Of a stretch of DNA of 64,000 bases, positions 4,926 through 50,791 are shown piece after piece; the stretch's first letter is position 1, and each line of letters opens with the position of its first letter. The notes beneath the pieces were generated by a model. The model saw only the letters and a program-made list of their open reading frames with translations, was not told the DNA's origin and made no database searches. Location: contig OZ250169.1 of assembly GCA_965237955.1 (NCBI GenBank), positions 3,104,001-3,168,000 on the forward strand, read 5' to 3'. A program made the position numbers and the translations under genes. The stretch is from Candidatus Marinacidobacterales bacterium (lineage in GTDB: Bacteria > Acidobacteriota > Vicinamibacteria > Marinacidobacterales > SMYC01).

Positions 4926-5301
4926 CTCGATGGCGACCAGGTGCGCGATGACCTCGACGGCCTCGGCCGCCTTCGCCCTGCGCGCGAGCTGGTTCAGGTT
5001 GTTGCCGATGAGACACTAAGTTGCTGGTTTATGGCCTATTTCAAAAGGGCCGAGTTTTGGCACAGGACGGGCGCGATCTCTTCCCAACGCTCCAGTTGTG
5101 CGAGCAGCATGTACTGTTGCCAGCGCGCTTTGCCGTCGCCGCCCGATTCGGCATTCCGAAGATCGGCCAAGGCGTGTTCGATGCCGGTTTCCAGGTCGAG
5201 GGACGGCTCATGCCTAGACTCCATCGCTGTCAACTGAGATTGCCAGAAATCCCAGAGGGGTTGTGCTGAATCACGGATGAACAGCTCCTTCGTTCGCTCA
5301 A

Positions 5302-8266
5302 GAATCCCGCGGTCGAGCTGCTTGATTTCCTCGGCTACACCTACGTTCCACCCGAATCCCTTGAAGGCGAACGCCAGGGCTTTAAGGAAACGAACCTCAC
5401 CGGACGCCTCGCATCGGCCCTTAAGCGACTGAATCCCTGGCTCTCCGAAACGAATGTCGCCAAGGCAGTGAAGACGGTGACGCACGTCGCTGCGGCCAGT
5501 CTCACGGAGGCGAACGAGAAAGTCTATACATCGCTCACCTACGGCATCGCGTTGGAGCAGGATCGGGGCGACGGACGGAAAAGCCATACAGTCCGGTTCT
5601 TCGACTTCGATCGGCCTGACCGCAACGAATGGATTGTTACCCGTCAGTACAAGGTGCTCGGGTCGAAGAAGCACATCGTCCCGGATGTCGTGGTGTTCGT
5701 CAACGGCCTCCCGCTCGCCGTCATCGAATGCAAGAGCCCGACCATCGGCGATGCCTGGAAGGCGAAGGCGATCCAGCAGCTCCACCGGTACCAGGAGGCT
5801 GGCACGCAGTGGAAGGACCAGGGGGCACCGAGGCTCTGCGAGGTGGCGCAGATTCTCGTCGGAACCTGTGGCGAACGGGCCGTCTACGGAACGGTCGGCA
5901 CGCCGGAGCGGTTCTTCCTGAAATGGAAGGAGCCGTACCCTCTAAGCGTAAAGCAACTCGGTGAGCGGCTCGGGCGCAAGCCAACGCCGCAGGACGTCTT
6001 GCTGTATGGATTACTCGAGCCGCGCAATCTGCTCGACATCGTGCGGAACTTCGTCGTTTTCGAGGTCGAAGGCGGCCGGAGCGTCCGCAAACTGGCACGC
6101 TATAAGCAGTTCATCGCCGTGAACGAGGCCATGGGCCGGATTCGTACGGCTCGGAAGCCTAGCGAGCGCGGCGGTATCGTTTGGCACACACAGGGTTCGG
6201 GCAAGAGCCTGACGATGCTATGGCTTGCACTCAAGCTCCGGCGTGACGCTGCCCAGCAGCAGCCTACCATTGTGATCGTCACCGACCGCACCAAGCTCGA
6301 TCGGCAGATTGCGGGCGTGTTCACTGCGTGCGGGTTCCCGAATCCCGAGCGGGCATACAGTGTGCGCGAGCTGCGGCGAATCCTGGAACATCCGACCGGC
6401 AGGACGGTGATGACCACGATCCAGAAGTTCCAGGAGATCACCGACACCGACCAGCGGGGGGCGGTCCACCCGACACTGTCCGAGGCCACCAACATCTTCG
6501 TCATGGTGGACGAAGCCCACCGCACGCAGTACAGGAGCCTGGCGGCGAACATGCGGCAGGCGCTGCCCAATGCGTGCTTTCTCGGCTTCACCGGCACGCC
6601 AATCGATAAGAAGGACCGCAGCACGCTGCGGACGTTCGGTCCTTACATCGATACCTACACGATTGAGCAGGCAGTTCAGGACGGGGCAACGGTGCCGATC
6701 TTCTACGAGAGTCGGCTCCCCGAGCTGCAGATCATCGGACAGACCATCGATCAGGTATTCGAGCGTGTATTTGCCGATTACACCGAGGACGAACGGACCG
6801 CTATCAAGCAGCGGTTTGCCACCGAGCAAGCGATTGCCGGCGCACCGCGTCGCATCGAGACGATTTGCCTGGACCTGATTGACCATTTCACCAGGTTCAT
6901 CGCACCGAATCGATTCAAGGCCCAGGTGGTGACCACGAGCCGCCACGCTGCGGTCACCTATAAGGAGACCCTGGACCGGCTGAACGGCCCTGAATCGGCT
7001 CTGATCGTGTCGTCGAGCAACAACGACGAGGAACGGCTGGCGCGCTGGCATCTGGGCAAGGAGCAACAAGACCGGCTCATCGAACGGTTCAAGGATCGGA
7101 ACGACCCGCTGTCCATTCTGGTGGTTTGCGACATGCTGTTGACCGGTTTCGACGCGCCGGTCGAGCAGGTCATGTATCTCGATGCGCCGCTCAAGGAACA
7201 CACGCTTCTGCAAGCCATCGCCCGGGTGAACCGGCCGCTCGGAGAGGAGAAGACCTACGGTTTGGTCGTGGACTACTGGGGCGTGTCGGCGAAGCTGCGG
7301 GATGCGCTCGCTGTCTTCTCGACCACGCATGTCCAAGAGGCGCTCATGCCAAAGGTGGACGAGTTGCCGCGTCTTCAGAGTCGGCATGCGGCGGCGATGA
7401 AGTTCTTCCGGATGGTCGAAGACACGAGCGACCTGGAAGCCTGTGTGCGGGTGCTGGAGCCGAAGGATGTCCGTGCGGAGTTCGACCTTGCGTTCCGCCG
7501 CTTCAGCCAGTCGATGGATATGATGCTGCCGGAGCAGCGTGCCCTCGCGTATAACACCGACCTGCGCTGGCTGGGAAAGATTCGTGGAACCGCGCGTGCC
7601 CGCTACCGGGATGACCGGCTCGACCTGTCGGGCTGCGGCGAGAAAGTGCGGAAGCTGATTGCCGACGCCGTAGTCGCGGACGGAATTCAGATCCTGGTCA
7701 CGAAGGTCCAGCTTTTCTCGCCGGAGTTTGAAGAGAAGGTCAATGCGCTCAAGACTGACGAGGCGAAGGCGAGCGAGATGGAGCACGCCATCCGTCACGA
7801 GATCAACGTCCGCGTGGAAGAAAACCCAGCCTTCTATCAGTCGCTGCGCGAACGGTTGGAAGAGATCATTGAACAGCGGCGGCTGGAACGGCTCGATGCC
7901 GCCAAGCAGCTGTCGCTTCTCAACAGCCTGCGCGAAGAACTGAAGGGCGAGCAGGCTCGGGCACAGGACATGGGGCTCGACGGGCGTGGCTTTGCCATCT
8001 ACGGGCTGCTGGAGCGGCAACGTCCGATGGCAGAAGGGGGAGATTCCACTTCGTACAACGCCGCCAACCGCGACCTCGCATCGCTCATCGACGAGGCGGC
8101 GGCACCCTTCACGGAGCTGGTCGACTGGTGGCAGAAGGATGACCTGCAGCGGCAGATGCGTAGCCAGATCAAGCGTCAGCTACGTGCCAGCGGCATCGCC
8201 GCCGAAGCAGTGGAATCGCTGGCGGCGGAAATTGTGGACTTGGCCAAGGTGAGAACCGACCGATGA
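5302..8266 (+). CDS. hsdR: Type I restriction endonuclease subunit R; extreme N-terminus apparently lost
   Basis: PDVV..IECK nuclease motif, WHTQGSGKS, DEAHR, GFTGTP, MLLTGFDAP, QAIARVNR. The frame is open upstream of GTG 5468 with HsdR-like NPAVELLDFLGYTY but has no ATG. Confidence 0.9.
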
Positions 8267-8991: not shown

Positions 8992-10323
8992 GAATAACAG
9001 CGGCTTCCTGCTGCTCCAGCGTGGTCATTAGCAAGCGTAACGTTTGGGCCGAACGGGCCTGAGCCGACGGTTTCGGAAAATCTTGCAATTTGGACAGAAG
9101 GGCTGATTTCCCAAGAAAGGCCGATCAACAACGGGCCGAAGAGCGACGATGGACGGGATGCTCTCAAGCCTTGCCGTATCCTGGTGGATACAAACTCCGA
9201 GGCATCCGAGGCAAGTGAGGGTATCAATGAAGCCCAGGCACACCTGGACCAGAACGTGCTAGCCCGCTACGCCACGGTAGCGCCGGCCTCGATTCTGGGC
9301 CTCGCGGGAGGCCTCTTTTCCGCTGCCGCACGGCCCCCGGTCAGCGCCCGCTCCCCCCTTTGGCGCAAACGTGGCACTCGAAAATCGCGATTAGAGACCA
9401 ATACCGAAAATGAGGCCTGTTCAGCCCTTCTAGCGCGTCTCTGGTGCCACCTACCCCTGCAAAACCCCGCCAACCGCGCGGAAAATCTCACCCGTCTCTG
9501 CAGTGCCACAATTGGCCAGACTGAGTGGCGGATGGTGCAGTCTCGAGCCATCCGGTCTCGGCAAAAGGTATTTTGGCAATTTTGGGAGTCAGGATCGAAC
9601 TTTTGGCCGTGCGCGTGGTTGGGGCAATGTAGCGAAAACTCAGAGAAGCCCTGATGCCCACAGCGTTCTATCCTGTTTTGTTACAGTGACTTAACGGAAG
9701 CCACCACGTGCTGGTCCCCGCACATCTCATCGCGGGTGCTCGTTCCGAGCCGGAATCGAATTTGCTTCAATCAAATTTCTTGTACGGCAATCTCAACCTC
9801 CTGGACGCTTGAAAGAGGGCCGTGTCGTAAACCCTCCGGAGGCGGCTCCGACCGTTACTCATTGTCGCAAAAGGCTTTACGTCTCATCAGCGAATGTTCG
9901 TCGACGGGAACATCTTTCCGGCTATCGCAGTCAGGAGGCTCGAGTGGAGCTTCCGATTCTTGGCTGGAAACGATCAGAAACAGAGCTAAACAGGCCATTA
10001 ACGTGCAATTTGGTGCGATTTTGGGGCTTATCGGGCCGTTTTTCTACTTAATCGCGCAGATAATGAGAAGACGCTTAACGCCTAGATCGCGCCTGAGGAG
10101 AAGGCGAATAGCGGAATTCGAATTGGCCAAACCTCGAATTCATCCAGCGGAGTTTTACGGAGGAAACGAAGATGACTCCGCAGACGGTCCAGTACAAGGA
10201 GCTATCCGAGTCTGGAAACCATGACAGGGAATTTGGGCCAGTTTGAGGCTGATTGGTGGAGGCCAGTGTCGGAGAGCAGCTTGCTGCTAACCGAGCCCAT
10301 TCACGAAGTGGGCGCTGGCAGGC

Positions 10324-11985
10324 TCACAGCGTTTTGACGAGCACTCGCTGTTTCTCCCAATCGTCGGGAAGCGGATGATGCAAGAGGTAGCTCGAGGTCA
10401 GCCCAACGGGCTGGCGGCCTTCGACAATGGCGCGGACGATGTCGGGAGCCAGGAAGGCATAACGGATTGCCTTGCGCACGCGGTCCGTTGGGATGGCGTT
10501 TTCGGTTGCAATCTGCTCATAGGTTTTGCCTGCTTTGATTCGGTCGAGCCAGGAGAGGGCGTTTCTGATATTGCGCAGGAGTGTGCGGTCGACGGATTTC
10601 GTGGGGTTGCCCAGAACGAGCTTGGTCTCGACGCCGCGTCGACGCAAGCGGAACGGTGCGAGGATGCGGAGTGCATCGTCGCGAATGCGTTCGGGTCCCA
10701 TAGAGAGGCAAGCAGCGAACGCATCGCGGTCGAGCAGGATGGACACAGAGCCGGGGCTGATGTCGACCCGCCGGATAAGACGGAGCAGGGGGGCTGCCGA
10801 GGCACTATCATTGTTACTACCGGAACACAGCCCGTCTAAAAAGCGACGCACCGAGGCGAGCTCTTGCATCGTCGGAGTGTGGATCAACGAGGCCGAGAAG
10901 GTCGTGGCATCCACATGCTGTCGGATGAGATGCACGACGGTCTGTTCCAGCATCGGGGCGGGCAGTCGCCAGCCGGAGAGGTCCTTTTGGCCACTGTGCT
11001 GGATGAGGCGCCGGGAGACGTAGTAGCGGAGCCGTTGCCCGTTTTTCTTTTTGGTGTGGCTCGGCGTCAGCCGGTCCCCGGTCTCGTCGAAGAGCTTGCC
11101 TGCCAGTGGGGAAGGGGCGGCACGGCCCTTCGTCGTGCGTCTCCTTGGTTTGGCAGCCCCTGCCTGCAGCTGCGTTTGGACCGCGTCCCAGAGCTCCGGA
11201 GCAATGATCGATGGATGCTGGCCCTCGTACACACGCCTCTGGTGCCGGATGCGGCCGGCGTAGAGAGGATTGGTCAGCAGGCAGTGGAGGTGTCCGCGAC
11301 GGAACGGCAGCCCGCCCGTTCGGGTTCCATCCGCGGTGAAGCGTTGCTTGGTACGCAGTCTCAGACGGTCCGCCTCGGCCTTCACCTGCCGGAGCGTTTC
11401 GTGCTTTCGGTACAGCGCATAGAGCGTCCGGACCGTTTCGGCCTCAGCCTCGTTGATGCGCAGCGTGCGCCCGTCCTTCTCATAGCCTAGCGGTACGCGG
11501 CCGCCCATCCATAGTCCCTTGCGCTTGGAGGCAGCGACCTTATCGTGGATCCGCTCGGCCGTGACCTCGCGTTCGAATTGTGCGAAGGACAGCAGCATAT
11601 GCAGCGTCAGTCGTCCCATGCTGGTCGCGGTGTTGAAGGACTGAGTCACCGAGACGAAAACCGCGCCGGCCGCCTCGAGCCGCTCGACGAGCTTCGCAAA
11701 GTCGGAGAGGGAACGGGTCAGCCGGTCGACCTTGTAGACCACAATCTGGTCGACGAGACCTGCGTCGATGTCGGCGAGCAAGCGCTGGAGGCCCGGGCGC
11801 TCCAGGGTTCCTCCCGAGAGCCCCGCGTCCTCGTAGACGGTTGGCAGCAGCACCCAGCCCTCCGCTTTCTGGCTCGCGACATACGCGGCGCAGGCTTCTC
11901 GCTGCGCATCGAGGGAGTTGAACTCCTGTTCGAGACCCTCTTCCGCACTCTTTCGCGTATAGATGGCACAGCGGATCTTCTTCAT
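10324..11985 (-). CDS. Large serine recombinase, copy 1
   Basis: CAIYTRKS catalytic motif, YKVDRLTRS, FAQFERE, recombinase domain; probable start MKKIRC. Confidence 0.92.
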   Translation of the reverse strand: MKKIRCAIYTRKSAEEGLEQEFNSLDAQREACAAYVASQKAEGWVLLPTVYEDAGLSGGTLERPGLQRLLADIDAGLVDQIVVYKVDRLTRSLSDFAKLVERLEAAGAVFVSVTQSFNTATSMGRLTLHMLLSFAQFEREVTAERIHDKVAASKRKGLWMGGRVPLGYEKDGRTLRINEAEAETVRTLYALYRKHETLRQVKAEADRLRLRTKQRFTADGTRTGGLPFRRGHLHCLLTNPLYAGRIRHQRRVYEGQHPSIIAPELWDAVQTQLQAGAAKPRRRTTKGRAAPSPLAGKLFDETGDRLTPSHTKKKNGQRLRYYVSRRLIQHSGQKDLSGWRLPAPMLEQTVVHLIRQHVDATTFSASLIHTPTMQELASVRRFLDGLCSGSNNDSASAAPLLRLIRRVDISPGSVSILLDRDAFAACLSMGPERIRDDALRILAPFRLRRRGVETKLVLGNPTKSVDRTLLRNIRNALSWLDRIKAGKTYEQIATENAIPTDRVRKAIRYAFLAPDIVRAIVEGRQPVGLTSSYLLHHPLPDDWEKQRVLVKTL

Positions 11986-11986
11986 G

Positions 11987-12418
11987 TTAGGCCTTGCGCT
12001 TGGGCGTGAGACCGAAAAAGCGTGGTCCTGACCAGTGGGTGCCGGTGATTCGCTTTGTGATGGCGGTGAGGGACGGATAGGTTTTGCCATCGAACCGATA
12101 GCCGTTGTCGATTACCTCGACCTGGTAGGTCCGGCCATTCCACTCGCGGACGAGATGGGTGCCGGCAGAAACGGACCCTGCGGGAGCGCCGGAGCTTGGT
12201 GTCTCGTTCGCCATGGCAGCCAGAGCGCGCCGGGTTGTGGCCGAATGCCAGCCAAGGGTCCGGCACTGGCGTTCGTACGCAAGAACGCGGCGCATGAAAA
12301 CGCGAGAGAGCGAGCTTGGAGGAGCAGCCCCAAAGGTCTGCTCCCAGACCCGCCGCAAGCTGGCGAAGTCCAAACCGTCCAGAACGACGTTCCGCCCAAC
12401 CCCTGTATCCTGCGGCAT
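11987..12418 (-). CDS. DUF2924 family protein, copy 1
   Basis: GTHLVREWNGRTYQVEV...SLTAITKRITGTHWSGPRFFGL, the usual upstream partner of this LSR family. Confidence 0.85.
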   Translation of the reverse strand: MPQDTGVGRNVVLDGLDFASLRRVWEQTFGAAPPSSLSRVFMRRVLAYERQCRTLGWHSATTRRALAAMANETPSSGAPAGSVSAGTHLVREWNGRTYQVEVIDNGYRFDGKTYPSLTAITKRITGTHWSGPRFFGLTPKRKA

Positions 12419-12926
12419 CACCGAACGTTCGCTCTTGTGCTCGATAAAGTCCAGTCTAATGAGGGACTTCCGGGTGCGCAGTCCGTTGCTCGTAGCTCGC
12501 CCCGCAGCCGATTTGAGCCAGCCGTGCGCACCCCCGGTGGGCCTGTCGCTCGCCACCCGCAGCCCAGGGGTCATAAGCCAGCCCTGCGGCGCGAAATACA
12601 CTCGATTCTGCGCGGATTCCAAGGGCGTCTAAGCTGCTGATTTGTGGTCTATTTCAAAAGGGCCGAGTTTTGGCACAGGACGGGGTGGCGGATAAGCGAA
12701 ACCTCCTCGGGCTTTCTCGGAAAAAGCTGGAATCATGCGCGACGCCCGAAGCTGACAAGTGGTGGGGTTGTCTGCGAGCGTTGAATGGTGCGGCCAGTCT
12801 AGATGCCTTAACGCTCCAAGTTCATAAGACTCCGGTGGCGTCGTCGGGTCGAACGGCACGAAGCAGCCAAGCGATGGCAAGTCCTAACCACGCAATCAAC
12901 GCTGGATCGACTTTTTGCGGAGCACA

Positions 12927-13075
12927 GGTTACCCAGCTTCTTCAGAGTATCCTGCGCGGTGTTTCTCGCTTTGATTCGCTCTCCTTCCGCGCCGTCGCGT
13001 ACGTCGCGTGTTGGGTTCCCGCGACAAGAGTCACCCGCACGGATCCCGTCACGACCACTTCTTCGCGAGTGAAAC
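12927..13075 (+). pseudogene. ABC/ADOP-family permease C-terminal fragment
   Basis: ILRGVSRFDSLSF..VACWVPATRVTRTDP resembles the ADOP terminal motif. Confidence 0.55.
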
Positions 13076-13113: not shown

Positions 13114-13575
13114 CTAGTTGGACTCGATCGGAGCGCTCAGGACGTTGGTCCCCCACATCAGCTTGATCTCGCCGCTGTTGCCGGAGCCGGACAGCTCGAT
13201 CGTGAACTGTTCCGTCGCGTCTCCGTCCTTCTTCCACGTGAGCTGGGCTTCGCCCACGTCGCGGCTGGCGTCGTGGGACGTGCCCCACTGCCCGGTCTGG
13301 GAGTTGAACACTAGGTGCCACGTGTCTTCGCTCACTCGTTTCGTGAACAAGCTGTACGCGCCCTTCGCGATCGCAGTGCCGGAAACGGTGATGTCGGCCC
13401 CGGTCGTGAACGTGGTGGATTGATCCGCGCCTGTGCGCCAAACGGTACCCACGGGGGCTTGGCCGAGCATGTCGCGTCCCCGGAGACTCGGCCGACCGTA
13501 GTCCACGGAAACCTCGCTTCCGCCTATGGTCGCTTTGGATGTGCCGCGGGGAGACTGAGCCCACGCCACGACGCC
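13114..13575 (-). pseudogene. DUF2911 family protein, signal peptide truncated by an IS end
   Basis: SPRG...VDYGRPSLRGR..WRTGAD..GAYSLF..GQWG; 5' junction with a type 1 end/transposase start. Confidence 0.75.
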
Positions 13576-13992
13576 CAGCCAGCTAGAACGAGCAGTAGGA
13601 ATTGCACGTGGTACGTCATCATGGATCTGAAGATAACACCCTCGGGCCAGACGATTGTAAAGCCTACGGCCCTTGGTCCGGTCGCAAACACAGACACTAA
13701 GCTGCTGATTTATGGTCTATTTCAAAAGGGCCGAGTTTTGGCACAGGACGGGGAATTGAGATAAACGAATAGGGGAATGTCAGAGCAGCACGTGAGGAGT
13801 TCCATTCGAGCACACGAATGGTTTTCTGCCTCTCCGTTCAAAAGAGTTGTGCTCCGCAAAAAGTCGATCCGGCGTTGATTCCGCGGGTTAGACCTACCAT
13901 AGTCGGCTGCTTCTGGCCGGTTTTCTTTTTTGCGGATCACAACAGCCAGCGGCCAACGTGGTCAATACCGGAAAATCAGGTGTTGCCTAGCC

Positions 13993-15408
13993 CTAGCTGA
14001 AGTCCACCCCGAAGAACAGCACCGCGATGATGATCGCCGCCACGGCCAGCGGCGACACGAACTGAATGAAGAACCGCCACGCTCCATAGTTGAACCACCT
14101 GGGTTCTGAGCCATCCACGAGCTCCCGCTCGGTGTACTTGCGCGTCAGGAACCAGCCCGCCGCGATCGTGATCGCAAATCCCCCGGTCGGGAGCATCCAG
14201 TTCGACACGAAGTGGTCGACCATGCCGAACCAGCTCGCCTTGCCGCCGAAGAGCATCTGGCCGAGCGCGCCGCCGAGTTGGAGCTCGGTGATCGCGCCGA
14301 CACCACCGAACGACAACGCGGCGAGGACCGTGAAGGCAAACACCGCACCACCACACAGCAGCGTCGCCGTGGCCCGCGGCATGTGGTGTTCGTCGATCAC
14401 GTAGGCAGCGACCACTTCCAGTAGCGACATCGTCGAGGTGAGCGCCGCGAGGGCCACCAACACGTAGAAGAGTGGCCCCAGGAATGCCCCGAACGGGACC
14501 TCGGTGAAGAACAGCTGCGGCAGCGAGATGAAGAGCATCCCCACAGTGCCCGTGCCGCTGACCTGCTCATCCATACCCGGCACGCTGAAGATCACCGAGA
14601 ACATGATCACCGTGGCCACGAGTGCGATCAGCGTATCGAGCACGACGATGATCGCCGAGGCTTTCACGATCGACTGATGCTTTGCGATGTACGAGCCGTA
14701 CGTCACCATCGCGCCCATGCCGAGCGAGAGCGTGAAGAACGCGTGGCCGAGCGCCTCGAGGACGCTCCCCCCATCCAACTCGCCGAAGCGCGGCAGGAAG
14801 ATGAAGCGGAGCGCCTCACCGGCCCCGGCCATCTCCAAGGCGGAGACAAGCAGCAAGACGAGGATCCCGAAGAGAATCGGCAGAAAGACACGCGCGATGC
14901 GCTCGATGCCCTTTTGGACGCCGAAGTAGACGACCGAGACCGTGGCGATACTGAACCCGAGAGACAAGCCAAGCTGCAGGCCGCCATTGGCCGCCTGCGC
15001 ACCGAACAGCTCGCCCATCGAGGCGCCCGCCGGGAATCCACCGACCGACCAGCCCGCGGACTTGGCGAAGTAGAAGAGCGACCAGCCCGCAATCACCGTG
15101 TAGTAGCTGAGCAGCAGAAAGCCGCAGAGCACGCCCCAGAGGCCAACGATGCCCCACGCCGGCCCGATGGCCTGCTTGAGCGCCCCGACCACGCTCTTCT
15201 GCGTCGCTCGCCCGATCAGCAGTTCGGCCATCATGATGGGCAGGCCCACGGCGGCGATGCACACGAGGTACACGAGGACGAAGGCCCCGCCGTTGTTCTC
15301 CCACGTGACGAACGGGAACTTCCACAGGTTGCCGAGGCCGATCGCGCTCCCGGTCGCGGCGAGAATTAAGCCGGTGTTCGAACTCCAATGGCCGCGCGGC
15401 TCTGACAT
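13993..15408 (-). CDS. Sodium-dependent transporter (NSS/SNF family), copy 1
   Basis: GSAIGLGNLWKFPF..NGGAF, AFFTLSLGMG; multiple TM helices. Confidence 0.93.
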   Translation of the reverse strand: MSEPRGHWSSNTGLILAATGSAIGLGNLWKFPFVTWENNGGAFVLVYLVCIAAVGLPIMMAELLIGRATQKSVVGALKQAIGPAWGIVGLWGVLCGFLLLSYYTVIAGWSLFYFAKSAGWSVGGFPAGASMGELFGAQAANGGLQLGLSLGFSIATVSVVYFGVQKGIERIARVFLPILFGILVLLLVSALEMAGAGEALRFIFLPRFGELDGGSVLEALGHAFFTLSLGMGAMVTYGSYIAKHQSIVKASAIIVVLDTLIALVATVIMFSVIFSVPGMDEQVSGTGTVGMLFISLPQLFFTEVPFGAFLGPLFYVLVALAALTSTMSLLEVVAAYVIDEHHMPRATATLLCGGAVFAFTVLAALSFGGVGAITELQLGGALGQMLFGGKASWFGMVDHFVSNWMLPTGGFAITIAAGWFLTRKYTERELVDGSEPRWFNYGAWRFFIQFVSPLAVAAIIIAVLFFGVDFS

Positions 15409-15687
15409 GTGTCGTTCTCCGATCGATGGCGTGGTCTACGGGAGGCGATGCGGCCCCAATAGATCCCGGCCCGTGAAGTCTCGCCCAGTAGACGTTACGT
15501 AAATACTCTAAAGGATTTCTGTCGGGCCAGCGAGCGGCACGGCAGTATCGCGCGTCAGCACGCCACGGAGAGAGGTCGGAAGCCAGCCCTGCGGCGCGAA
15601 ATACCCTCGATTCTGCGCGGATTCCAAGGGCGTCTAAGCAGCTGATTTGTGGTCTATTTCAAAAGGGCTGAGTTTTGGCACAGGACG

Positions 15688-17005
15688 GGGTGTACCTCTC
15701 GGCGGTAGAGGATGCGTTCGGATCTGATATCGACTACGTAATGTTGATCAAAAACTACGGAGACGCGCCGGAAGGTCAGAGGCGGTACAGCCCGGCCGTC
15801 TGCACCGGAGCGACGCGGATACGCGTCACTGGCGACCCCGACGATGACCACATCTCCACGAGCTACGTCGAGCGCCAGAACCTGACGATGCGGATGTCGA
15901 TGCGGCGTTACACGCGGCTGACGAACGCCTTCTCGAAGAAGCTGGCGAACCTGGAGCATCACGTCGCGCTCTACTTCGTGCACTACAACTTCTGCCGGGT
16001 CCACAAGACGTTGAGAACGTCGCCGGCGATGGCAGCCAAAATCACGGACACGCTTCACGACATGGAGTGGATCGTCGGCCTCATCGATGCGCGGGCACCG
16101 AAGCCAGGCCCACGCGGACCCTACCGAAAGCGCCAGCAGGCAGCATAACCCAGGGCTTGGGACTGTTGGTGCTTGATCTGCCAACCTCGTTCAGCTTAGA
16201 ATCCCACTAGCTCGGTTTCCCCGAGTCCGTTGATTCTTTCGGCTTAGTCTCCATAGAATCAGCCGCCCCGCTAGCCGGCCGCTAGCGGGGCGGCGCACTT
16301 TCGCCGGCCTCGATGGAGCCGAAACATGGAGACTAAGGATGATAATTCCGTCTTTACCCCCGATCCCTGATCCGTTCGACGACCCACGACTCAAAAAAGA
16401 ACTTCTCCAAATGGCGAAGGCGTTCGAAACCCACGAGAAGAAGTTCGCTGCGCTTAAGCCACAAGTGGAGCGTCAGTTCCGTCATATGTCGGCAGAGTTA
16501 GCGCGAAGCTGGCCTGCTCTGAGGCAGTCGCGTGTCAAACTTGAAGGAAAACCAAGCATGAAGATTCCATCTATACCCGTCGCTCCATTTGAGCTGAAGC
16601 TCCCTAGAAGCGATCAGCTAGAAACCATCATCCGTAGACTTGACGAAATTGATTCTACTCTGGGAAAGGTCGTAATTTTGATGCAGGAAGGGTTGAATCG
16701 GAAGGTTCAGACCGAGACGAGCCCAACGTCGGAAGGACATACTCAACCACCCTCAAAGCCGAAAACTGTTCGTTAAATGTCGTTCCACTGTTTTCCAAAA
16801 GCTCGATGATAGACTGGGCCAGGGCGAGCGAAATGGCGCGTTTTCCGACTAGATGAGAACCGGGAAGGTCCGACATGAAACCCCACTTGTGAAGGCCTGG
16901 AAGGAAATTATAGCATGAAGCCCAACTGGTAGCGTTCAGAGCGGCGAGGCTTACGCCTTCCAACTTGTGAGCTCCATTTTCTTAATTTCAAACTGAGACA
17001 CTACC
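15688..17005 (+). mobile_element. IS1-family element, 5'-truncated, with passenger DNA
   Basis: Transposase C-half 15688-16148 (STSYVERQNLTMRMSMRRYTRLTNAFSKK..YNF); right-end-like TTTCAAACTGAGACACTACC at 16986-17005. Confidence 0.7.
16339..16776 (+). CDS. Hypothetical passenger protein (coiled-coil-like)
   Basis: 145 aa ORF in lower-GC DNA inside the IS1-like element. Confidence 0.5.
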   Translation: MIIPSLPPIPDPFDDPRLKKELLQMAKAFETHEKKFAALKPQVERQFRHMSAELARSWPALRQSRVKLEGKPSMKIPSIPVAPFELKLPRSDQLETIIRRLDEIDSTLGKVVILMQEGLNRKVQTETSPTSEGHTQPPSKPKTVR

Positions 17006-17264
17006 CCATCAAGTGTTGCTTCAGTTGGCCTGCCTGTGCCGGCGAACGCGTCGTGTCCAAAAATACAAACGAACTCAAGATCGGCACGCCGGGACGTTTC
17101 GGAATAGATTGATGACAGCTAGTGGACCCACTGGTAGTTGATGCGGGCACGAATCAAAGCTGGGGATTATTACAGCGAATTGGAATCCTCGTTCAAGGGG
17201 AAACCGTAGTATCCTGGGAGCGTCTTTCAATACAGAAGGGGGCAACGCCATTTGGAGGAGAACT

Positions 17265-17516
17265 ATGGCAAAAGCGCGAGTGTTGACGCGGTTGGAACTA
17301 GCCGAGCATTTGGGTGTCGATAAACAGATGGTAACGAAATGGGAGCGGTCTGGGATGCCGGTCCACACCAGAGGGCGCGGCGTGGCGTCTCAATTCCGTC
17401 TGGGGGAGGTCCGGGCGTGGCTAAGGGTGCGGGAAGCGAAGGCCAAAGCGGCGGAGAAGGCGAAGGTGCGGGAAGCCAAAGCGTCAGAGAAGGCGAAGAA
17501 GACAGCGAAGGGTTAG
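17265..17516 (+). pseudogene. Phage terminase small subunit Nu1-like HTH protein, 3'-truncated
   Basis: GGAGGAG RBS; LAEHLGVDKQMVTKWERSGMP..FRLGEVRAWL; ends at a DUF2924-module fragment. Confidence 0.6.
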
Positions 17517-17871
17517 CCCCAAAGGTTTGCTCCCAGACCCGCCGTAAGCTGGCGAAGTCCAAACCGTCCAAAACGACGTTCCGGCCAATCCCTGTATCCT
17601 GCGGCATCACCGAACGTTCGCTCTTGTGCTCGATAAAGTCCAGTCTAATGAAGGACTTCCGGGTGCGAAGTTCACTGCCCGCAGCTCGCCCCGCAGCCGA
17701 TTTGAGCCAGCCGTGCGCACCCCCGGTGGGCCTGTCGCTCGCCACCCGCAGCCCAGGGGTCGGAAGCCAGCCCTGCGGCGCGAAATACCCTCGATTCTGC
17801 GCGGATTCCAAGAGCGTCTAAGCTGCTGATTTGTGGTCTATTTCAAAAGGGCCGAGTTTTGGCACAGGACG
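17515..17871 (-). pseudogene. Fourth, partial copy of the DUF2924 module (5' region plus type 1 end)
   Basis: Near-identical to 12326-12682. Confidence 0.85.
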
Positions 17872-18404
17872 GGGAGCGGCGCACCTCGCTCACGGCCGTA
17901 CGAAGTCATGGCACGCTGGTACGATGTCGACGGCAAGCCGTCGCTGTTCATCTTCGGTCCCGCCGCTCAGACCCCGTTTGGCCTAATCTCCGATCCCCAG
18001 AAGGGCAAGGTAGGGGCCATCCTGCGGGAGGTATGTCGGAATGGACGATAGACGATGTTTCGTTCAGTTCTCGCACCCCGGGGGCGTTGTTGCACCGCTC
18101 TTGGCTGAGAGCGAAATCTGCCTATCGTGGTGGCCGGGGTCGGAGAGCAGATGATGCAAGAGGTAGCTTGAGGTCAGCCCAACAGGCTGGCGGCCGTCGA
18201 CAATGGCACGGACGATGTCGGGTGCCAGGAAAGCATAGCGGATTGCCTCGATATTCGCTCTCGACTAGGTGGTCATCTGCATGGTGACGACCCGCCCGCC
18301 CAAGACAATTGTAGAGCCTACGGCCCTTGGCCCAGTCGCAAACACAGACACTAAGCTGTTGATTTATCAGCTATTTCAAAAGGGCTGAGTTTTGGCACAG
18401 GACG

Positions 18405-21191: not shown

Positions 21192-21940
21192 GCGAGCGAG
21201 GGACCACAGCGTCGATGCGATAAAAACGGGTGAAACCGCCAAACCCGGGGCCAGACGATGCGGCGCCAAAACGACGCGCGAGAATGCCTCAGGAAGCGTC
21301 TTCTCGAGCCAGGCCATACCCCAGCAACCCCCCGAAACCAGCCCCACATCGCCCGGGGTTCGGCCGCGGCAGGTCGCTGCCTACGGGAGCGGGAAGGTCG
21401 CTTCGCGTCTTTCCTTACGCCCGCTCCCTCCGGCACCGACCTGCCGCCCCTTGCTACACAACACGCAGGTAAGATAGGTTCACGTTTTCAATCAGTGGGA
21501 AGGAGGTCACCCAACACTTCATCGCTTCGATGAGCGTTCGGCTTCACCGGATTCGCTGTTCAGCTTGCTCTGGATTCGGCGTTCACGATGGCTGGAATAC
21601 GCACCGGATTTCGCTCTCAGCCAGAGCGGTGCAACAACGCCGGCTTATCGGGACGTTTTTGCGCTTAATCGTGCAGACAATGAGAAGACGCTCTACGCCT
21701 AGATCGCGCCTGAGGAGAAGGCGAATAGCGGAATTCGAATTAGCCAAACCTCGAATTCATCCAGCGGAGTTTTACGGAGGAAACGAAGATGACTCCGCAG
21801 ACGGTCCAGTACAAGGAGCTATCCGAGTCTGGAAACCATGACAGGGAATTTGGGCCAGTTTAAGTCTGATTGGTGGAGGCCAGTGTCGGAGAGCAGCTTG
21901 CTGCTAACCGAGGCCATTCACGAAGTGGGCGCTGGCAGGC

Positions 21941-23603: not shown

Positions 23604-23604
23604 G

Positions 23605-27153: not shown

Positions 27154-27154
27154 G

Positions 27155-31325: not shown

Positions 31326-31328
31326 CTT

Positions 31329-33930: not shown

Positions 33931-33988
33931 ATGGCGGAAGCACCGATTTATGGCCTATTTCAAAAGGGCCGAGTTTTTGCGCAGGACG

Positions 33989-34231
33989 GGGGTCGAGAAG
34001 CTGCGCACCGAGCCGGTGTTCGTGCTCTGGATCGAAAACAAGGAGTTCCAGTGGCTCGAGCCGACCATCACCACCGAGCAGATCGCCGAGCTTGGCGGCT
34101 GGGATCCGTCGAAGGGCGTTCAGCAGATCGACCTTGCCACGAACAAGGCACACACACTCAAGCCGGGTGAAATCGTCGATCTGAGGGATATCAAGACCTT
34201 CGTGAAAAAGATCGGCTGGCGACGTGGCTGA
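33989..34231 (+). pseudogene. Ubiquitin-like (multi-ubiquitin domain) protein, 5'-truncated
   Basis: LWIENKEFQWLEPTITTEQIAELGGW...LKPGEIVDL, C-terminal Gly (GWRRG*); starts at a type 1 end. Confidence 0.7.
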
Positions 34232-34635
34232 GCGCGAGCTCCGCCTCGAGGAAGAACACCGGCTGATCGCCACGGTCTTTCCAAGCGTCGTTCAGTCGGG
34301 GGATTGGTTCCTCATCCCGGACGACGCTCGGGCGACGCGGTACGGCTGGACTCTGGATCCGTTTCCGGTTGCGTTTCACGCACAGCCAGGACACCCGGGG
34401 CAGGTGCCATACGGTATATACGTGCCGTCCTCCGCACAGGCCGGCGGCCAAGTGCCGAACAACTTCAACGGCAACGCGAGCAATCGGCCGCCGTTCGAGG
34501 GGCAGTGGGGTGTTCTCTCCTGGCAGGGCGACGACCAAGGAATCCCCTGGGTCCCGGCGCAGCGGATTCGCGAGGGGGCCAACCTGTTGAACTTCCTCAT
34601 TCACGTTCGACGAGCGGTTCAAAGAAGGTGTCTGA
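34224..34635 (+). CDS. Prokaryotic E2-like protein (Prok-E2_E-like), apparent +1 frameshift near 34600
   Basis: WFLIP..GW..VAF..PGHPGQVPYGIYVP..WGVLSW..W.P..NLLNFL; removing one base gives TFDERFKEGV* overlapping the next GTG. Confidence 0.7.
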
Positions 34636-35176
34636 ATCCACTAAGGAACGGAGGCTCCGCTTCGAGAGCAAGGCGCATTACCAAGCATTTCGCTCCGCGC
34701 TCGTGTGCGGAGCATACGCATACTATCGCGAGCAAGGGGCTTTTCTCTTCGCGTCCCCGGCGGCAAATGGAGAGCTGGACGTCGTTGATGTCGCCGTGCT
34801 CAAGACGGCCGATTTCGTTATGCAGTCGGCCGGCTACGTGGAGCTGCACGACGATGCGCTCCAGGAGATGATCGTCCGTGCGCATAGGACGGACACCGCG
34901 CTGATGGAGGCTCACTCGCACCCCCTCGCGGAAGGGCCTCGGGTGCGTTTTTCGTCCTTCGATTGCGAGGGCTTGGCCGACATCGGGCCGCAGATGTCGT
35001 GGCGACTTCCAGGCCGGCCCTACATCGCCTTGGTCTTAGGTCGGGATGCGTTCGATTCCCTTTACTGGGAAGGTCGAGAGCGAAGGCCTCGGGGCTCCGT
35101 GGACCTTGTCGTCGCCGGGCAACTGCTACGCGCGAGTCGTGAATCCGAGCGCTCTTGGGGGCGAGACCATGGATAG
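34628..35176 (+). CDS. JAB/MPN metallopeptidase
   Basis: EQGAFLF, EAHSHP...FSSFD JAMM motif. Confidence 0.8.
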   Translation: MSESTKERRLRFESKAHYQAFRSALVCGAYAYYREQGAFLFASPAANGELDVVDVAVLKTADFVMQSAGYVELHDDALQEMIVRAHRTDTALMEAHSHPLAEGPRVRFSSFDCEGLADIGPQMSWRLPGRPYIALVLGRDAFDSLYWEGRERRPRGSVDLVVAGQLLRASRESERSWGRDHG

Positions 35177-35978
35177 GTTCGACAGGCAACGGAAGATCTT
35201 CGGAGACGAGGGACAGAAGCGCCTGCGCGCCGCGACGGTTGGTGTCGTCGGCGGGGGAGGCCTGGGCTCGTTCATAGTGCTCGAGCTTGCCTATCTGGGG
35301 ATTGGGAAGATCCTAATTGTCGACCAGAAGCTGCTCAAGTGCTCGAATCGGAACCGGTTGGTGGGTGCTTGGGCGTCGCACCCAGACGGGACGCCCAAGG
35401 TCCAGCTACTACGCGACCTCGCGGGACTGATCGACTCCAAGATCGAGATCGAGCTGGTACAGGACGGTGTCGAAAGCTCCGATGCACAAGCCGCACTCGC
35501 AAGCGTGGACATCGTTGTGGGATGCGTCGACCACGATGGCCCTCGGTTCGTGCTGAACGAATTCTGCTGCAAGCAAGGTCTGCCGCTTATCGACGCGGCA
35601 AGCGATACAGTGCATGAAAAGGACAGGGTTCTCTTCGGAGGGCGGGTTTGTGTCGCAACGCAGGAGACGGGCTGCCTCGCGTGCTTCAAGGTGTTGGACC
35701 AGAACGAGCTTCAGGACTACTTCGCTTCGCCACAGCAGCGGACTGACCGGGGTGCGATCTACGGCGTGCCCGAGAGCGCCCTGGCCGGTGGCGGTCCGTC
35801 GGTGGTCACGGTCAACGGAGTGGTAGCGTCGATCGCGGCGACAGAATTGATGGTGTTGGTGACCGAGATCCGTGCTCCCATCGCGCATCAGGACTGGCGT
35901 GGCCATGAGGGTTGCCTGCTTCGTGTTGTCGACCGCGAGGAAGGCTGCTACTACTGTGGCTTGCGTCCTGTTGATTAG
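35169..35978 (+). CDS. ThiF/E1-like adenylyltransferase
   Basis: RFDRQ, VGGGGLGS, SNRNRL, GCVD, CLAC and CYYC Zn pairs. Confidence 0.88.
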   Translation: MDRFDRQRKIFGDEGQKRLRAATVGVVGGGGLGSFIVLELAYLGIGKILIVDQKLLKCSNRNRLVGAWASHPDGTPKVQLLRDLAGLIDSKIEIELVQDGVESSDAQAALASVDIVVGCVDHDGPRFVLNEFCCKQGLPLIDAASDTVHEKDRVLFGGRVCVATQETGCLACFKVLDQNELQDYFASPQQRTDRGAIYGVPESALAGGGPSVVTVNGVVASIAATELMVLVTEIRAPIAHQDWRGHEGCLLRVVDREEGCYYCGLRPVD

Positions 35979-36656
35979 CCGGGTCCTATTGCTCACTACG
36001 GTACTTTCGAGTGAACGAACGATTTCGGTCACTCCCCGATGGCCTCCGCCCACGCGGGCGGTGCCGTCCTGTGCCAAAACTCGGCCCTTTTAACTGAAAG
36101 GGATGTCCGAGTCTATGTCAGAATCAGCGGCACAGCGGCAGCGACACCTGTGCTCCGCAAAAAGTCGATCCGGCGTTGATTACGTGGTTTAGACCTGCCA
36201 TGCTCGGCTGCCTTGTGCCGGTCGACCCGACGGCGCCACCGGCGTCTTAGGAACGTGGAGAGGCTCGCTCTTGCGACTGTTTTCGAATATCCGGTCTATT
36301 GTTCTGGACGCCATCGCGTTCGCTCGCAACCTATGCCGCTCGCGCCGCGCCCTCGCCGCAGAGAACTTTTTCCTTCGGAAGCAGCTCACGTTCTTTGTCG
36401 AGCGTAAGCAGGCTGTGCTCCGCAAAAAGTCGATCCAGCGTTGATTGCGCGGTTTAGACCTGCCATGTTCAGCTGCTTTCGCTCCGATCGACCCGACGAC
36501 GCCACCGGCGTCTTATGAACGTGGAGAGGCTCCCTCGGGCCAGACGATTGTAAAGCCTACGGCCCTTGGCCCGGTCGCGAACACAGACACTAAGCTGCTG
36601 ATTTATAGTCTATTTCAAAAGGGCCGAGTTTTGGCACAGGACGGGGGGGACACCAG

Positions 36657-39642: not shown

Positions 39643-40313
39643 AGGCTCGTGACCTACTATGTGCTCGTCGTCATCGAGCTGTCTTCGCGAAAAGTGCACA
39701 TTGCCGGAATCACTCCGGGGCCGGATGGCCCGTTCATGATGCAGGTCGGTCGGAATCTCACCGACTCATTCGACGGCTTTCTGCGCGGCAAGCGATTCCT
39801 CATCCTGGACAGCGACAAGAAGTTCACCACGGAGTTTCGCGATTTGCTCGAGCACGCCGGAACGGACGTCATTCGGCTGCCGCACCGTTCGCCGAATCTG
39901 AACGCTTACGTCGAAAGGTTTGTTTTGTCGATCAAGAGCGAGTGCTTGGAGCGGATGATCTTCTTCAGTGAGCAATCGCTGCGCCGTGCCGTCGCTGAGT
40001 TCATCCATCATTATCACGGAGAGCGCAACCATCAAGGGCTCGGGAACGCGTTGCTCGAAGCGGAAGAATGCGTCGGCAGTCCTCACGGGAAAGTGCGATG
40101 TCGTAAGAGATTGGGCGGCTTGCTCAGCTATTACCACCGCGACGCCGCATAGGAGTTCGGGCGCGCCAGTTGGACGGAACGGATGGTCTGCAGGAGAGGT
40201 CTGCTCGGGGTCGCCTATCGCAGAGCTAGTACCGCGTCGGCTGGTCTCCGCGAGTTTTGAGAACGCCTCTAGGATTCGACCTTGCCGCTCCGTTCGCGTT
40301 TTCGGACAGGACG
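39643..40313 (+). mobile_element. 3' half + IRR of the type 2 integrase-core IS
   Basis: Near-identical to 28928-29600. Confidence 0.88.
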
Positions 40314-40550
40314 CGATCAACAACGGGCCGAAGAGCGACGATGGACGGGATGCTCTCAAGCCTTGCCGGATCCTGGTTGATACAAAATCCGAGGCAAGTG
40401 AGGGCTGTGCTCCGCAAAAAGTCGATCCGGCGTTGATTGCGCGGGTTAGACCTACCATAGTCGGCTGCTTCTGGCCGGTTTTCTTTTTTGCGGATCACAA
40501 CAGCCAGCGGCCAACGTGGTCAATACCGGAAAATCAGGTGTTGCCTAGCC

Positions 40551-41966
40551 CTAGCTGAAGTCCACCCCGAAGAACAGCACCGCGACGATGATCGCCGCCA
40601 CGGCCAGCGGCGACACGAACTGAATGAAGAACCGCCACGCTCCATAGTTGAACCACCTGGGTTCTGAGCCATCCACGAGCTCCCGCTCGGTGTACTTGCG
40701 CGTCAGGAACCAGCCCGCCGCGATCGTGATCGCAAATCCCCCGGTCGGGAGCATCCAGTTCGACACGAAGTGGTCGACCATGCCGAACCAGCTCGCCTTG
40801 CCGCCGAAGAGCATCTGGCCGAGCGCGCCGCCGAGTTGGAGCTCGGTGATCGCGCCGACACCACCGAACGACAACGCGGCGAGGACCGTGAAGGCAAACA
40901 CCGCACCACCACACAGCAGCGTCGCCGTGGCCCGCGGCATGTGGTGTTCGTCGATCACGTAGGCAGCGACCACTTCCAGTAGCGACATCGTCGAGGTGAG
41001 CGCCGCGAGGGCCACCAGCACGTAGAAGAGTGGCCCCAGGAATGCCCCGAACGGGACCTCGGTGAAGAACAGCTGCGGCAGCGAGATGAAGAGCATCCCC
41101 ACAGTGCCCGTGCCGCTGACCTGCTCATCCATACCCGGCACGCTGAAGATCACCGAGAACATGATCACCGTGGCCACGAGTGCGATCAGCGTATCGAGCA
41201 CGACGATGATCGCCGAGGCTTTCACGATCGACTGATGCTTTGCGATGTACGAGCCGTACGTCACCATCGCGCCCATGCCGAGCGAGAGCGTGAAAAACGC
41301 GTGGCCGAGCGCCTCGAGGACGCTCCCCCCATCCAATTCGCCGAAGCACGGCAGGAAGATGAAGCGGAGCGCCTCACCGGCCCCGGCCATCTCCAAGGCG
41401 GAGACGAGCAGCAAGACGAGGATCCCGAAGAGAATCGGCAGAAAGACACGCGCGATGCGCTCGATGCCCTTTTGGACGCCGAAGTAGACGACCGAGACCG
41501 TGGCGATACTGAACCCGAGAGACAAGCCAAGCTGCAGGCCGCCATTGGCCGCCTGCGCACCGAACAGCTCGCCCATCGAGGCGCCCGCCGGGAATCCACC
41601 GACCGACCAGCCCGCGGACTTGGCGAAGTAGAAGAGCGACCAGCCCGCAATCACCGTGTAGTAGCTGAGCAGCAGAAAGCCGCAGAGCACGCCCCAGAGG
41701 CCAACGATGCCCCACGCCGGCCCGATGGCCTGCTTGAGCGCCCCGACCACGCTCTTCTGCGTCGCTCGCCCGATCAGCAGTTCGGCCATCATGATGGGCA
41801 GGCCCACGGTGGCGATGCACACGAGGTACACGAGGACGAAGGCCCCGCCGTTGTTCTCCCACGTGACGAACGGGAACTTCCACAGGTTGCCGAGGCCGAT
41901 CGCGCTCCCGGTCGCGGCGAGAATTAAGCCGGTGTTCGAACTCCAATGGCCGCGCGGCTCTGACAT
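40551..41966 (-). CDS. Sodium-dependent transporter (NSS family), copy 2
   Basis: Three amino acid differences seen versus copy 1 (A/T, R/C, I/V). Confidence 0.93.
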   Translation of the reverse strand: MSEPRGHWSSNTGLILAATGSAIGLGNLWKFPFVTWENNGGAFVLVYLVCIATVGLPIMMAELLIGRATQKSVVGALKQAIGPAWGIVGLWGVLCGFLLLSYYTVIAGWSLFYFAKSAGWSVGGFPAGASMGELFGAQAANGGLQLGLSLGFSIATVSVVYFGVQKGIERIARVFLPILFGILVLLLVSALEMAGAGEALRFIFLPCFGELDGGSVLEALGHAFFTLSLGMGAMVTYGSYIAKHQSIVKASAIIVVLDTLIALVATVIMFSVIFSVPGMDEQVSGTGTVGMLFISLPQLFFTEVPFGAFLGPLFYVLVALAALTSTMSLLEVVAAYVIDEHHMPRATATLLCGGAVFAFTVLAALSFGGVGAITELQLGGALGQMLFGGKASWFGMVDHFVSNWMLPTGGFAITIAAGWFLTRKYTERELVDGSEPRWFNYGAWRFFIQFVSPLAVAAIIVAVLFFGVDFS

Positions 41967-41989
41967 GTGTCGTTCTCCGATCGATGGGC

Positions 41990-42609
41990 GTGGTCAACGC
42001 GCATGCTGGAAGTGGCGGGCTGCAAACTCCTCTGCCGCCACAATCTCGGTCCCGTCCACGATGCGGACACGCTTGCCCTCGGTCTTGGGTGCAAAGGTGG
42101 CATTGAGGCGGACTTCCTCTACGTCCTGTTGCGCTAAGAACTCGGCCTGCGAAGTCTCCTTGAAGTCGTACTTAGGGTTGGTCGCGTGTAGTTGCTTTGT
42201 CTCTTCAAGCACTTCGTGCTCCACTTCCTCCCTAAGCGCCTTGGCTTCGTCGGTCCAAAGAGTACCCGGGTCCAGGCCTGCAGCCTCTGCACGGTCCGCG
42301 AACCGCTTGAACACCCCGAACTGCAACTCGCGCCAGTAGTAGCGTTTGACCATGCATGGCTGCACGCGGGTGCGCTTCGACCGGCATCCCACGGCACTCG
42401 CGGCAAATGTCGTCGACGAACCCGAGGGTGACAGGTATCCGCTCCTGAGTCTCCAGCACACACCCTTCCCGTAGCTGGTGGGCGAGGAAGCGTTCACCAT
42501 TCTCGCGGTCGCATACGCACATCATGACGCCGCTGCAAGTGCCGCAACGGTACTTGCGGATCAGCTCGTATTCGTTGAGACACAGGACAGATTTGTGAAG
42601 ACAAGACAT
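41990..42609 (-). pseudogene. Cys-rich hypothetical protein, frameshifted and 3'-truncated
   Basis: RCGTC..MCVC..CREC; continues in another frame as KRYYWRELQF. Confidence 0.5.
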
Positions 42610-42853
42610 GGAGCTACCCTCAAAAAGTGTGGAAATGAAGTAAAGGCGGAGTAACCTTCCGCGTCGCAAAACACGGCCTGAAGAGGCCTACGGAAGGAAG
42701 ACACCGCCATGAAGGAAAAGACCACAGGAGGTAGGAGCTCGTCAAGGGTGGCCTGGGAGTCGCTGGAGAAGTGGGCGAGGCTTGAGATCCAGGATTGGCT
42801 CCAGGAGCTGATGGTCGTCCTGTTTCAAAAGGCCCGAGTTTTGGCACAGGACG

Positions 42854-45031: not shown

Positions 45032-45241
45032 ATGGACTGGAAGACCATGCTGGGCTACGTCTCAGGATCCGTGGATGAGAAATTGCTCCTGCGCAACGGG
45101 TATCTTGTGGCCGAGAATCGAGTTCTTCGAAATCAGATCCAGGGTCGCTTGCGCCTGACCGATGCGAAACGTCCCGGCGCGACGGTCTTGAGTCCGTTTG
45201 TGTTTTTGGACACGACGGCGTTTGTGTTTTTGGACACCACG
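45032..45241 (+). pseudogene. Integrase-core transposase N-terminus followed by two tandem inverted type 2 ends
   Basis: LLLRNGYLVAENRVLRNQ; (CGTTTGTGTTTTTGGACAC.ACGG)x2. Confidence 0.7.
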
Positions 45242-50142: not shown

Positions 50143-50791
50143 GGGGGAGGGCTCCCGGTAGGGTCGAGGGCTGGCGCGGTGCTCCGTAGGCGCGGCCTAT
50201 CTGTTTCTCCCCGTCCTGTGCCAAAACTCGACCCTTTCGAAATAGACCATAAATCACCGGCTTAGTGTCTGTGTTTGCGACCGGGCCAATAAAAGGCCCA
50301 CCGATGAGGCTCCCTCACTATTATAGTCGGCACCCTGGGCATCAGCGGGGGAACTGTCCGGCCCAGCAGGCTTCTGGTCAGGCTCCATCGCGGTAGGGTC
50401 GAGGGCTGGCACGGTGCTCCGTAGGCGCGGCCTATCTGTTTTCCCCGTTTCCTGTGGGAGTGCCCGTAAGGTCAAAATACTCATGCGGCTTCCCTATGGT
50501 AGAAACGTAGCAACCCGCCAAGCCGTTCACGGGAGCGCACCATAGACACTAAGCTGCTGATTTATGGTCTATTTCAAAAGGGCCGAGTTTTGGCACAGGA
50601 CGGGGTGGCGGATGGTGCAGGTTGGAGCTATCCGGTCTCGGCAAAAGGTGGTCCAGCTTTTGGCGGAAATCCTCAAACAGAAAAGTCAGTGGAGATTCAG
50701 GAGGTTTCGAGCTTCGCGCATTTCTAGAATTTATGGATGCGTACGCACAGGTTTTGCGAGAAGGCTGTTTTACGCGCTCTCGGGTTTCAAC

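Follow-up and report, generated by a model that had tools for sequence, protein, structure and literature searches.

Insertion sequences (IS) with a DDE transposase are defined by paired-end insertion and target duplication, and prokaryotic members of the IS481 family have TGT...ACA termini. IS91/ISCR and ISEcp1 start from one defined end and capture neighbouring DNA of varying length; IS91/ISCR has an HUH transposase and unequal ori and ter ends, and ISEcp1 makes 5-bp duplications. Here we describe a 1,428-bp IS of a Candidatus Marinacidobacterales bacterium, the ends of which recur through a 64-kb window of its 8.13-Mb contig (64,000 nucleotides of OZ250169.1, positions 3,104,001 to 3,168,000; positions below are those of the window unless the genome is named). 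On balance, the ends of this IS and of its derivatives were likely joined one at a time, by a predicted single-end strand transfer into the target ACN^GGRT, and not by paired insertion.

Several other described systems are close. IS481 members are given target duplications of 2-15 bp, mostly 6, and the IS1202 group duplications of 24-29 bp, in the family descriptions of PMC10045372. PMC11708052 includes the case of an IS481 element that sits in the middle of a 60-kb duplication and has no target duplication. For copy-out-paste-in elements, the account in PMC7780238 includes an asymmetric single-strand transfer into flanking DNA. The description of IS26 in PMC7986276 has arrays of IS-bounded pieces, often without flanking repeats, and mobile units made of one IS plus neighbouring DNA. 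Telomeric transposons, as presented in bioRxiv 10.1101/2024.11.13.623437, capture adjacent DNA from one end, yet they use two ends and produce 5-bp duplications.

The insertion sequence and its closest relatives

A 22-mer motif matches the window 16 times, 14 on the plus strand and 2 on the minus strand, and never in 100 shuffles. An earlier reading of the window from its letters only (the sequence-only reading) had listed these 16 copies and their strands correctly; it took the motif for the left end of an rve-type IS with no right end and no intact cognate transposase. The rve assignment holds and the rest does not. The genome, a single 8.13-Mb contig, was searched for the motif with up to 3 mismatches. 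It has both the intact parent and its right end: the motif forms the outermost part of the 102-bp inverted repeat that caps both ends of the 1,428-bp IS. Its single open reading frame (ORF) of 356 aa encodes an rve-type DD(35)E transposase. There are 24 full-length two-ended units in the genome, 19 of them with an intact ORF, and the second D and the E are 35 residues apart in all 19. The window itself holds no intact copy of the IS; the nearest lies 34 kb before it.

The transposase scores 102 bits against the NCBIfam IS481 model NF033577 (cut-off 224) and 84 bits against the IS3 model (cut-off 160). Both models match all 54 aligned homologues, with IS481 the best for every one of them (best E 1e-30), and there was no IS6 transposase match. 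The predicted structure, with a mean pLDDT of 76, matches retroviral integrases, IstA, Mos1 and MuA; no solved structure was matched by sequence (best E 0.067). Homologues are abundant (7,997 among 7,998 scored candidates), and those on plasmids are annotated merely as "integrase core domain-containing protein."

With IS481, the element shares a single-ORF rve-type DDE transposase of similar size and the best family match. It differs from IS481 in missing the NF033577 cut-off, in its CGT...ACG termini, its 102-bp repeats and its asymmetric target, and in the lack of duplications in 65 two-ended units of this genome and 44 of its relatives. The DD(35)E integrase-like core is also that of IS3 and other copy-out-paste-in elements (IS911, ISCth4), and the single-end step that we propose would equal their asymmetric strand transfer. 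However, there is one ORF here, no OrfA/OrfB frameshift and no 3-5 bp duplication. As to abutted circle junctions with a few-base spacer, the chromosome showed none; the shortest end-to-end spacer of this element there is 24 bp. IS6 elements have 8-bp duplications and directly repeated arrays, whereas we see no duplication, no strand bias and no IS6 transposase. The mode of working is nevertheless similar to that of the adjacent-deletion arrays of IS26 and IS1 and of the one-ended mobilisers, with which the IS has in common the capture of adjacent DNA from one defined end, and window segment 15685-17874 looks like an IS26-type translocatable unit. Unlike IS91/ISCR, it has a predicted RNase H-fold enzyme, not an HUH one, and two equal inverted ends. 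As in integrons, gene pieces delimited by ends stand in series; they are cut at arbitrary points inside genes, however, without polarity, and a Pfam scan of 81 window ORFs gave no tyrosine integrase match. These IS ends form a real and abundant system, an IS481/IS3-like variant whose mode is likely one-ended.

Ends are clustered in islands and balanced by strand

The whole genome has 501 motif ends, 241 on the plus strand and 260 on the minus strand. Nearly all of them (487/501) fall within 11 clusters, or islands, which together span 1.76 Mb, about a fifth (~22%) of the chromosome; the 64-kb window is one ordinary slice of them. Neighbouring ends have the same orientation in 224 of 500 pairs. 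When the orientations of the 501 ends were shuffled 5,000 times, at least 14 of 16 neighbouring ends lay on one strand in 48.5% of the shuffles (P=0.49). The 14:2 bias of the window is therefore uninformative. The sequence-only reading had proposed a polarised, locus-specific, integron-like platform, and this is not supported: strands are balanced genome-wide and in relatives, the bias of the window is that of chance, and both ends and intact parents exist. Its expectation of clustering was right, and that of an orientation bias was not. Nor are the ends evenly scattered through the genome; in two-ended units they do pair as inverted ends, and target duplications are absent there.

Candidate target sites are not scarcer outside the islands (0.76 vs 0.88 sites per kb). 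The idea that islands are anchored at tRNA genes was rejected, as just 2 of 22 island borders lie within 3 kb of one, and tRNA and Rfam scans of the window gave no matches.

The target is asymmetric

Conservation of the ends is 99% up to ...ACG and stops there, to be followed by a GG(G/A)T bias. GG begins the outside flank at 368 of the 501 ends, which extends to the genome the GG(G) seen earlier after the window copies. A logo of the pre-insertion sites, built from uninterrupted alleles elsewhere in the genome (178 distinct sites), has A at -3 (57%), C at -2 (66%), G at +1 (69%), G at +2 (84%), G or A at +3 and T at +4 (60%), with C the rarest base at -1 (13%). The pre-insertion consensus is ACN^GGRT. 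Paired insertion needs a palindromic logo, and none fits: in every register from -4 (a 4-bp deletion) to +11 (an 11-bp duplication) the summed chi-square is at least 275 with 12 degrees of freedom. The logo is therefore incompatible with symmetric insertion. The pattern AC-NNN-GT is common to the junction and the target. A sibling rve family has a different asymmetric logo (68 sites), which means that target choice tracks the transposase family.

No paired insertion footprint is seen

None of the 65 two-ended units in the genome has a direct repeat of 4-30 bp, which bears out the lack of target duplications first noticed at window junctions. We then considered whether the two flanks of a unit are contiguous elsewhere in the genome. 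Of 59 informative units, meaning that at least one flank has another genome copy (59/65), none has contiguous flanks. IS21 served as a positive control: its flanks are contiguous in 17/30 informative copies, with 6-8 bp duplications, and in 9/15 copies inside the same islands. The sibling rve family scored 0/33.

Duplications may also be kept in trans, split between distant copies. An IS5-family element of this genome keeps its 9-bp duplication in this way at 14/263 ends, against a shuffled mean of 1.4. The 501 ends of the 1,428-bp IS show no excess of trans-split duplications at any length from 5 to 15 bp. For 202 of the 501 ends an uninterrupted allele exists elsewhere in the genome; at offsets of -6 to +10, the ends with such alleles have no reciprocal partner junction.

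Other kinds of footprint were tried. A fixed cis duplication, short or of 24-29 bp, was rejected, being found in no two-ended unit. Long variable duplications were considered on account of five low-copy pairs (383, 773, 1,508, 1,763 and 1,768 bp) with an end on opposite sides of their two copies, a list from which multicopy pairs and whole-segment duplicates are excluded; end density predicts 1-2 such pairs, and the five are not counted as evidence. A search of the breakpoints of five repeats for scarless reciprocal junctions gave no clear pattern in the inspected part of 243 unassigned breakpoints. The rule that clean inserters reach the core chromosome and this IS cannot holds for IS21 and fails for the IS5-family element.

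The signature recurs in related genomes

The closest copies of the IS (~95-99% protein identity) are in genomes titled Candidatus Marinacidobacterales (Acidobacteriota, Vicinamibacteria). The motif is present in 9 of 30 relatives, and 8 of the 9 have 29-437 copies with balanced strands. As a replicate we used 790 kb picked from end-rich parts of two relatives. It contains 282 ends, and the logo from 113 sites is the same as in the main genome; duplications were found in 0/44 two-ended units and contiguous flanks in 0/37. Among 24 complete copies in related loci, 22 have no repeat, and the other 2 show no more than 2-3 consecutive C. A pattern search recognized the CGT terminus together with the ACG one in 8 of 20 distant loci (54-66% protein identity), and none of those 8 has a flanking repeat within the 8 flank bases examined. 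A miniature element of 316-318 bp makes up 31 of the 44 two-ended units in the sampled stretches of the two relatives. In three Streptomyces plasmid relatives with 36-38% identity, CTG/CCTG is followed by short inverted repeats, and a duplication is not obvious.

Derivatives, cut genes and copied segments

Besides the complete IS, the same end caps miniature elements of ~134, 317 and 391 bp and a 3-kb cargo unit consisting of a DUF2924 gene and a large serine recombinase; 248/501 ends retain at most 110 bp of the element. The recombinase unit has ~35-40 genome copies, with 78/80 breakpoints inside islands. It is present in all four tested relatives that carry the IS (two families; full copies 95-98% identical) and not in the one tested relative without it. 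The 16 window ends comprise 3 left ends, 1 right end, 5 of recombinase-unit type or remnants of these, 2 that bound one miniature element, and 5 short remnants. These and the associated features are as follows.

5011-5069, plus strand: remnant of the IS terminal repeat, 59 bp, adjoining an ORF that is cut and lies upstream of hsdR
9649-12682, minus strand: recombinase cargo unit, DUF2924 protein and large serine recombinase, IS-type end at 12629-12682
13574-13750, minus strand: IS left end, positions 1-177 including the transposase start
15571-15687, plus strand: recombinase-unit-type end, 117 bp, joined into an IS1-like transposase gene
15685-17874, plus strand: captured 2.19-kb segment, 99.95% identical to genome 2044120-2046309
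17515-17871, plus strand: recombinase-unit-type end, 357 bp
18245-18404, plus strand: IS right end, positions 1269-1428, joined into an IS5-family transposase gene
21642-24300, minus strand: second recombinase cargo unit, recombinase split over two ORFs, end at 24247-24300
24543-24620, plus strand: 78-bp end remnant, joined to a recurrent site at the far side of the recombinase unit
24807-27757, minus strand: third recombinase cargo unit; its end at 27704-27757 runs into the transposase gene of the IS itself
27752-27983, minus strand: IS left end, positions 1-232, with the first 33 transposase codons
28159-29600, plus strand: sibling rve IS with related CGT...ACG ends, frameshifted
33945-33988, plus strand: end remnant, 44 bp; the joint falls inside a multi-ubiquitin ORF that precedes a ThiF gene
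36065-36091, minus strand: 27-bp end remnant
36532-36643, minus strand: IS left end, positions 1-112, adjoining a PQQ-like beta-propeller gene
42819-42853, plus strand: 35-bp end remnant cutting an ORF of a restriction-modification-like cluster
50212-50602, no strand assigned: miniature element, complete at 391 bp, with an inverted end on each side; the two flanks are unrelated and show no duplication

The claim that the DNA after an end often starts within a gene was sound: an uninterrupted allele is present in the genome for 9 of the 16 window ends. At 15688 the allele of the IS1-like gene extends ~240 nt further (Pfam DDE_Tnp_IS1 E=0.008, short of the cut-off). The IS5-family transposase gene cut at 18405 has 54 alleles, and that of the IS itself, cut at 27758, has 19. 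Two further examples from the sequence-only reading are supported in part. The end at 33989 joins inside the multi-ubiquitin ORF (PF14452) and that at 42854 cuts an ORF beside a pair formed by a PD-(D/E)XK gene and a D12 methylase; both are mid-ORF joints, and neither ORF has an uninterrupted allele in the genome. From 33989 to 35978 the multi-ubiquitin ORF, a further ORF and a ThiF/E1 gene stand in a row that resembles a ubiquitin-like defence operon with its first gene cut.

Copying of segments is frequent in the islands. Repeats of at least 97% identity cover half of the island bases vs 13% outside, and low-copy duplications 20.5% vs 2.8%. When low-copy duplications of at least 1.5 kb are considered, 28 of 130 boundaries lie at an IS end (chance, 0.86%). 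The clearest case is 15685-17874. Its counterpart 1.07 Mb away begins within the uninterrupted gene, while the window copy begins directly after an end; in both places the segment finishes at an end. Slices of 24, 25, 27 and 105 bp of otherwise intact sequences each lie between two outward-facing ends. In five relatives examined for outward-facing pairs, one has a 28-bp slice. A preferred spacing of ~25 bp is weakly hinted at by these data (3 cases here and 1 in five relatives). Duplications of 24-29 bp, the lengths given for the IS1202 group, are absent in cis; at about that length, what was observed are the three slices of 24-27 bp here and the 28-bp one. Together, the alleles, the logo, the absent footprints and the duplication boundaries support what had been suggested from the window: that ends are joined singly or bring about adjacent deletions, that elements nest in earlier ones, and that gene pieces are captured.

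Two more duplicated segments were observed. The segment 46996-50221, with a TonB-dependent receptor, is 3,226 bp long, 100% identical to genome 1079239-1082464, and ends beside the miniature element. An 8.6-kb inverted duplication (genome 642415-651011 and 661246-669844) has one boundary at an IS end.

Neighbouring repeats

Sibling rve families with CGT...ACG ends have 221 ends genome-wide, 199 of them within 20 kb of the same islands; in the window they occupy 28159-29600, 17049-17108, 31325-31532, 39645-40313 and 45165-45217. The IS5-family element has copies at 50793-51879 and 63244-64000; at 50848-52284 an IS5-family transposase ORF and the N-terminal part of a DprA gene form an in-frame fusion. 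The trans 9-bp pairs of this element include left-left and right-right combinations, which hints at replicative inversions that span the chromosome. Another type of repeated end (D14/D18), with ~50 genome copies, is found at 4662, 12874-12929, 13847, 36148, 36413 and 40405. A sodium:neurotransmitter symporter gene is present twice (13848-15440 and 40406-41999, 99.4%), each copy starting at a D14-type end. A 196-bp inverted repeat pair (3614-3809 and 4376-4571) surrounds a 566-bp stretch with a UPF0236-like fragment.

Discussion

The evidence for single-end transfer comes from static assemblies. From these we infer the following course. The transposase would nick the 3' ACG of one end and attack the target in the same AC-N^NN-GT register; in copy-out transposition this would be the initial, asymmetric step, here with no partner end that is fixed. 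Host replication or repair could then turn the branch into an adjacent deletion, an inversion, a duplication, or a circle consisting of the end and neighbouring DNA. Products of this kind would be similar to the IS26 units of PMC7986276 and to the IS481 case of PMC11708052. A two-ended copy would arrive at a new place via two uncoupled transfers, and recombination in the common 54-102 bp would swap flanks further. Only dispensable DNA would tolerate such events, with the result that ends pile up in islands; the islands would grow by copying pieces of themselves, and the window would be one slice of the result.

The competing account that deserves most attention is ordinary two-ended insertion, copy-out/paste-in or replicative, of the IS3, IS903 or IS26 type, with all footprints erased later. 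The islands would then be the graveyard of a very active IS. We consider this rather unlikely, but several points speak for it and against one-ended joining. Adjacent deletion and recombination between copies are among the causes of absent duplications documented in PMC11708052, and complete two-ended copies and miniature elements are common here. Of the 80 full copies of the IS5-family element, 79 show no cis duplication and none has a cis duplication of 9 bp, and its flanks are contiguous in 0/47; heavy later rearrangement can therefore erase footprints in this genome. Inner sequences differ in 27 of 39 groups of ends that share one flank, which shows later flank swapping or end truncation that could hide a first insertion. 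At the rate of the IS5-family element, the ~200 informative ends are expected to yield only a handful of reciprocal pairs, so that finding none is by itself evidence of moderate weight, and many of the alleles are in multicopy elements and hence not independent. Junction and allele have different bases at +1 in 17/181 sites and at +2 in 11/181 (background ~3), the change being mostly toward G. These departures may be carry-over from an old flank; clean transfer at one fixed bond does not explain them. No circle or strand-transfer product was seen in the static assemblies, and the 317-bp miniature element would, under one-ended joining, have to multiply as a two-ended unit without paired insertion. 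Against erasure, IS21 retains its duplications in the same islands, and the IS5-family element retains its own in trans, whereas the 1,428-bp IS shows neither cis nor trans duplications. Erasure would also have to contend with a target logo that fits no symmetric register and recurs in two relatives, and with the eight distant loci that likewise lack a repeat in the 8 flank bases examined.

A site-specific, integron-like cassette platform, in which the ends are recombination sites, possibly for the end-capped large serine recombinase, appears very unlikely to us. The AC-NNN-GT pattern shared by junction and target would suit it, as would the near confinement of the recombinase units to islands and their co-occurrence with the IS in the tested relatives. 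But polarity is no greater than chance, reciprocal products and a tyrosine integrase were not found in the searches above, the ends belong to a DDE element with a degenerate target, and the sibling family has its own logo. Less probable still, and to be given hardly any weight, is that misassembly at repeats made the unrelated flanks. Half of the island bases are indeed in near-identical repeats, and contigs of four sequencing runs do not bridge the repeats, two of them continuing for ~400 unlike letters left of 36639. Against this, the genome is a single contig, and the many ends of at most 110 bp are too short to mislead long-contig assembly. Misjoins would not create a specific target logo, IS21 flanks are correctly paired in the same islands, and separate assemblies show the same pattern.

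Joining of ends one at a time thus remains the reading we favour. Tentatively, and with less assurance than for the joining itself, the element may serve as type member for a large IS family still without a name (CGT...ACG termini, thousands of homologues) that gave up paired integration and works only by single-end transfers into a short asymmetric site. Our literature search, outside ISfinder and subscription papers, turned up no account of the family. What the present analysis adds is the asymmetric target, a set of reciprocal and trans tests that have internal controls, and a replicate in relatives. The small size of the element (1.4 kb), its 19 intact copies and its known target logo make the test simple.

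One-ended joining would explain the patchwork of cut and copied gene pieces in the islands, and the IS would give a concrete system for the question, left open in PMC11708052, of IS-linked rearrangements without duplications. With a widespread family that leaves this asymmetric, one-ended signature in three genomes, deletions, duplications and gene capture would have a separate route by which to arise. If paired integration has indeed been given up, the transposase would be an engine dedicated to shuffling, which builds plasticity zones of megabase size and takes up pieces of genes, the DDE counterpart of one-ended rolling-circle mobilisers.

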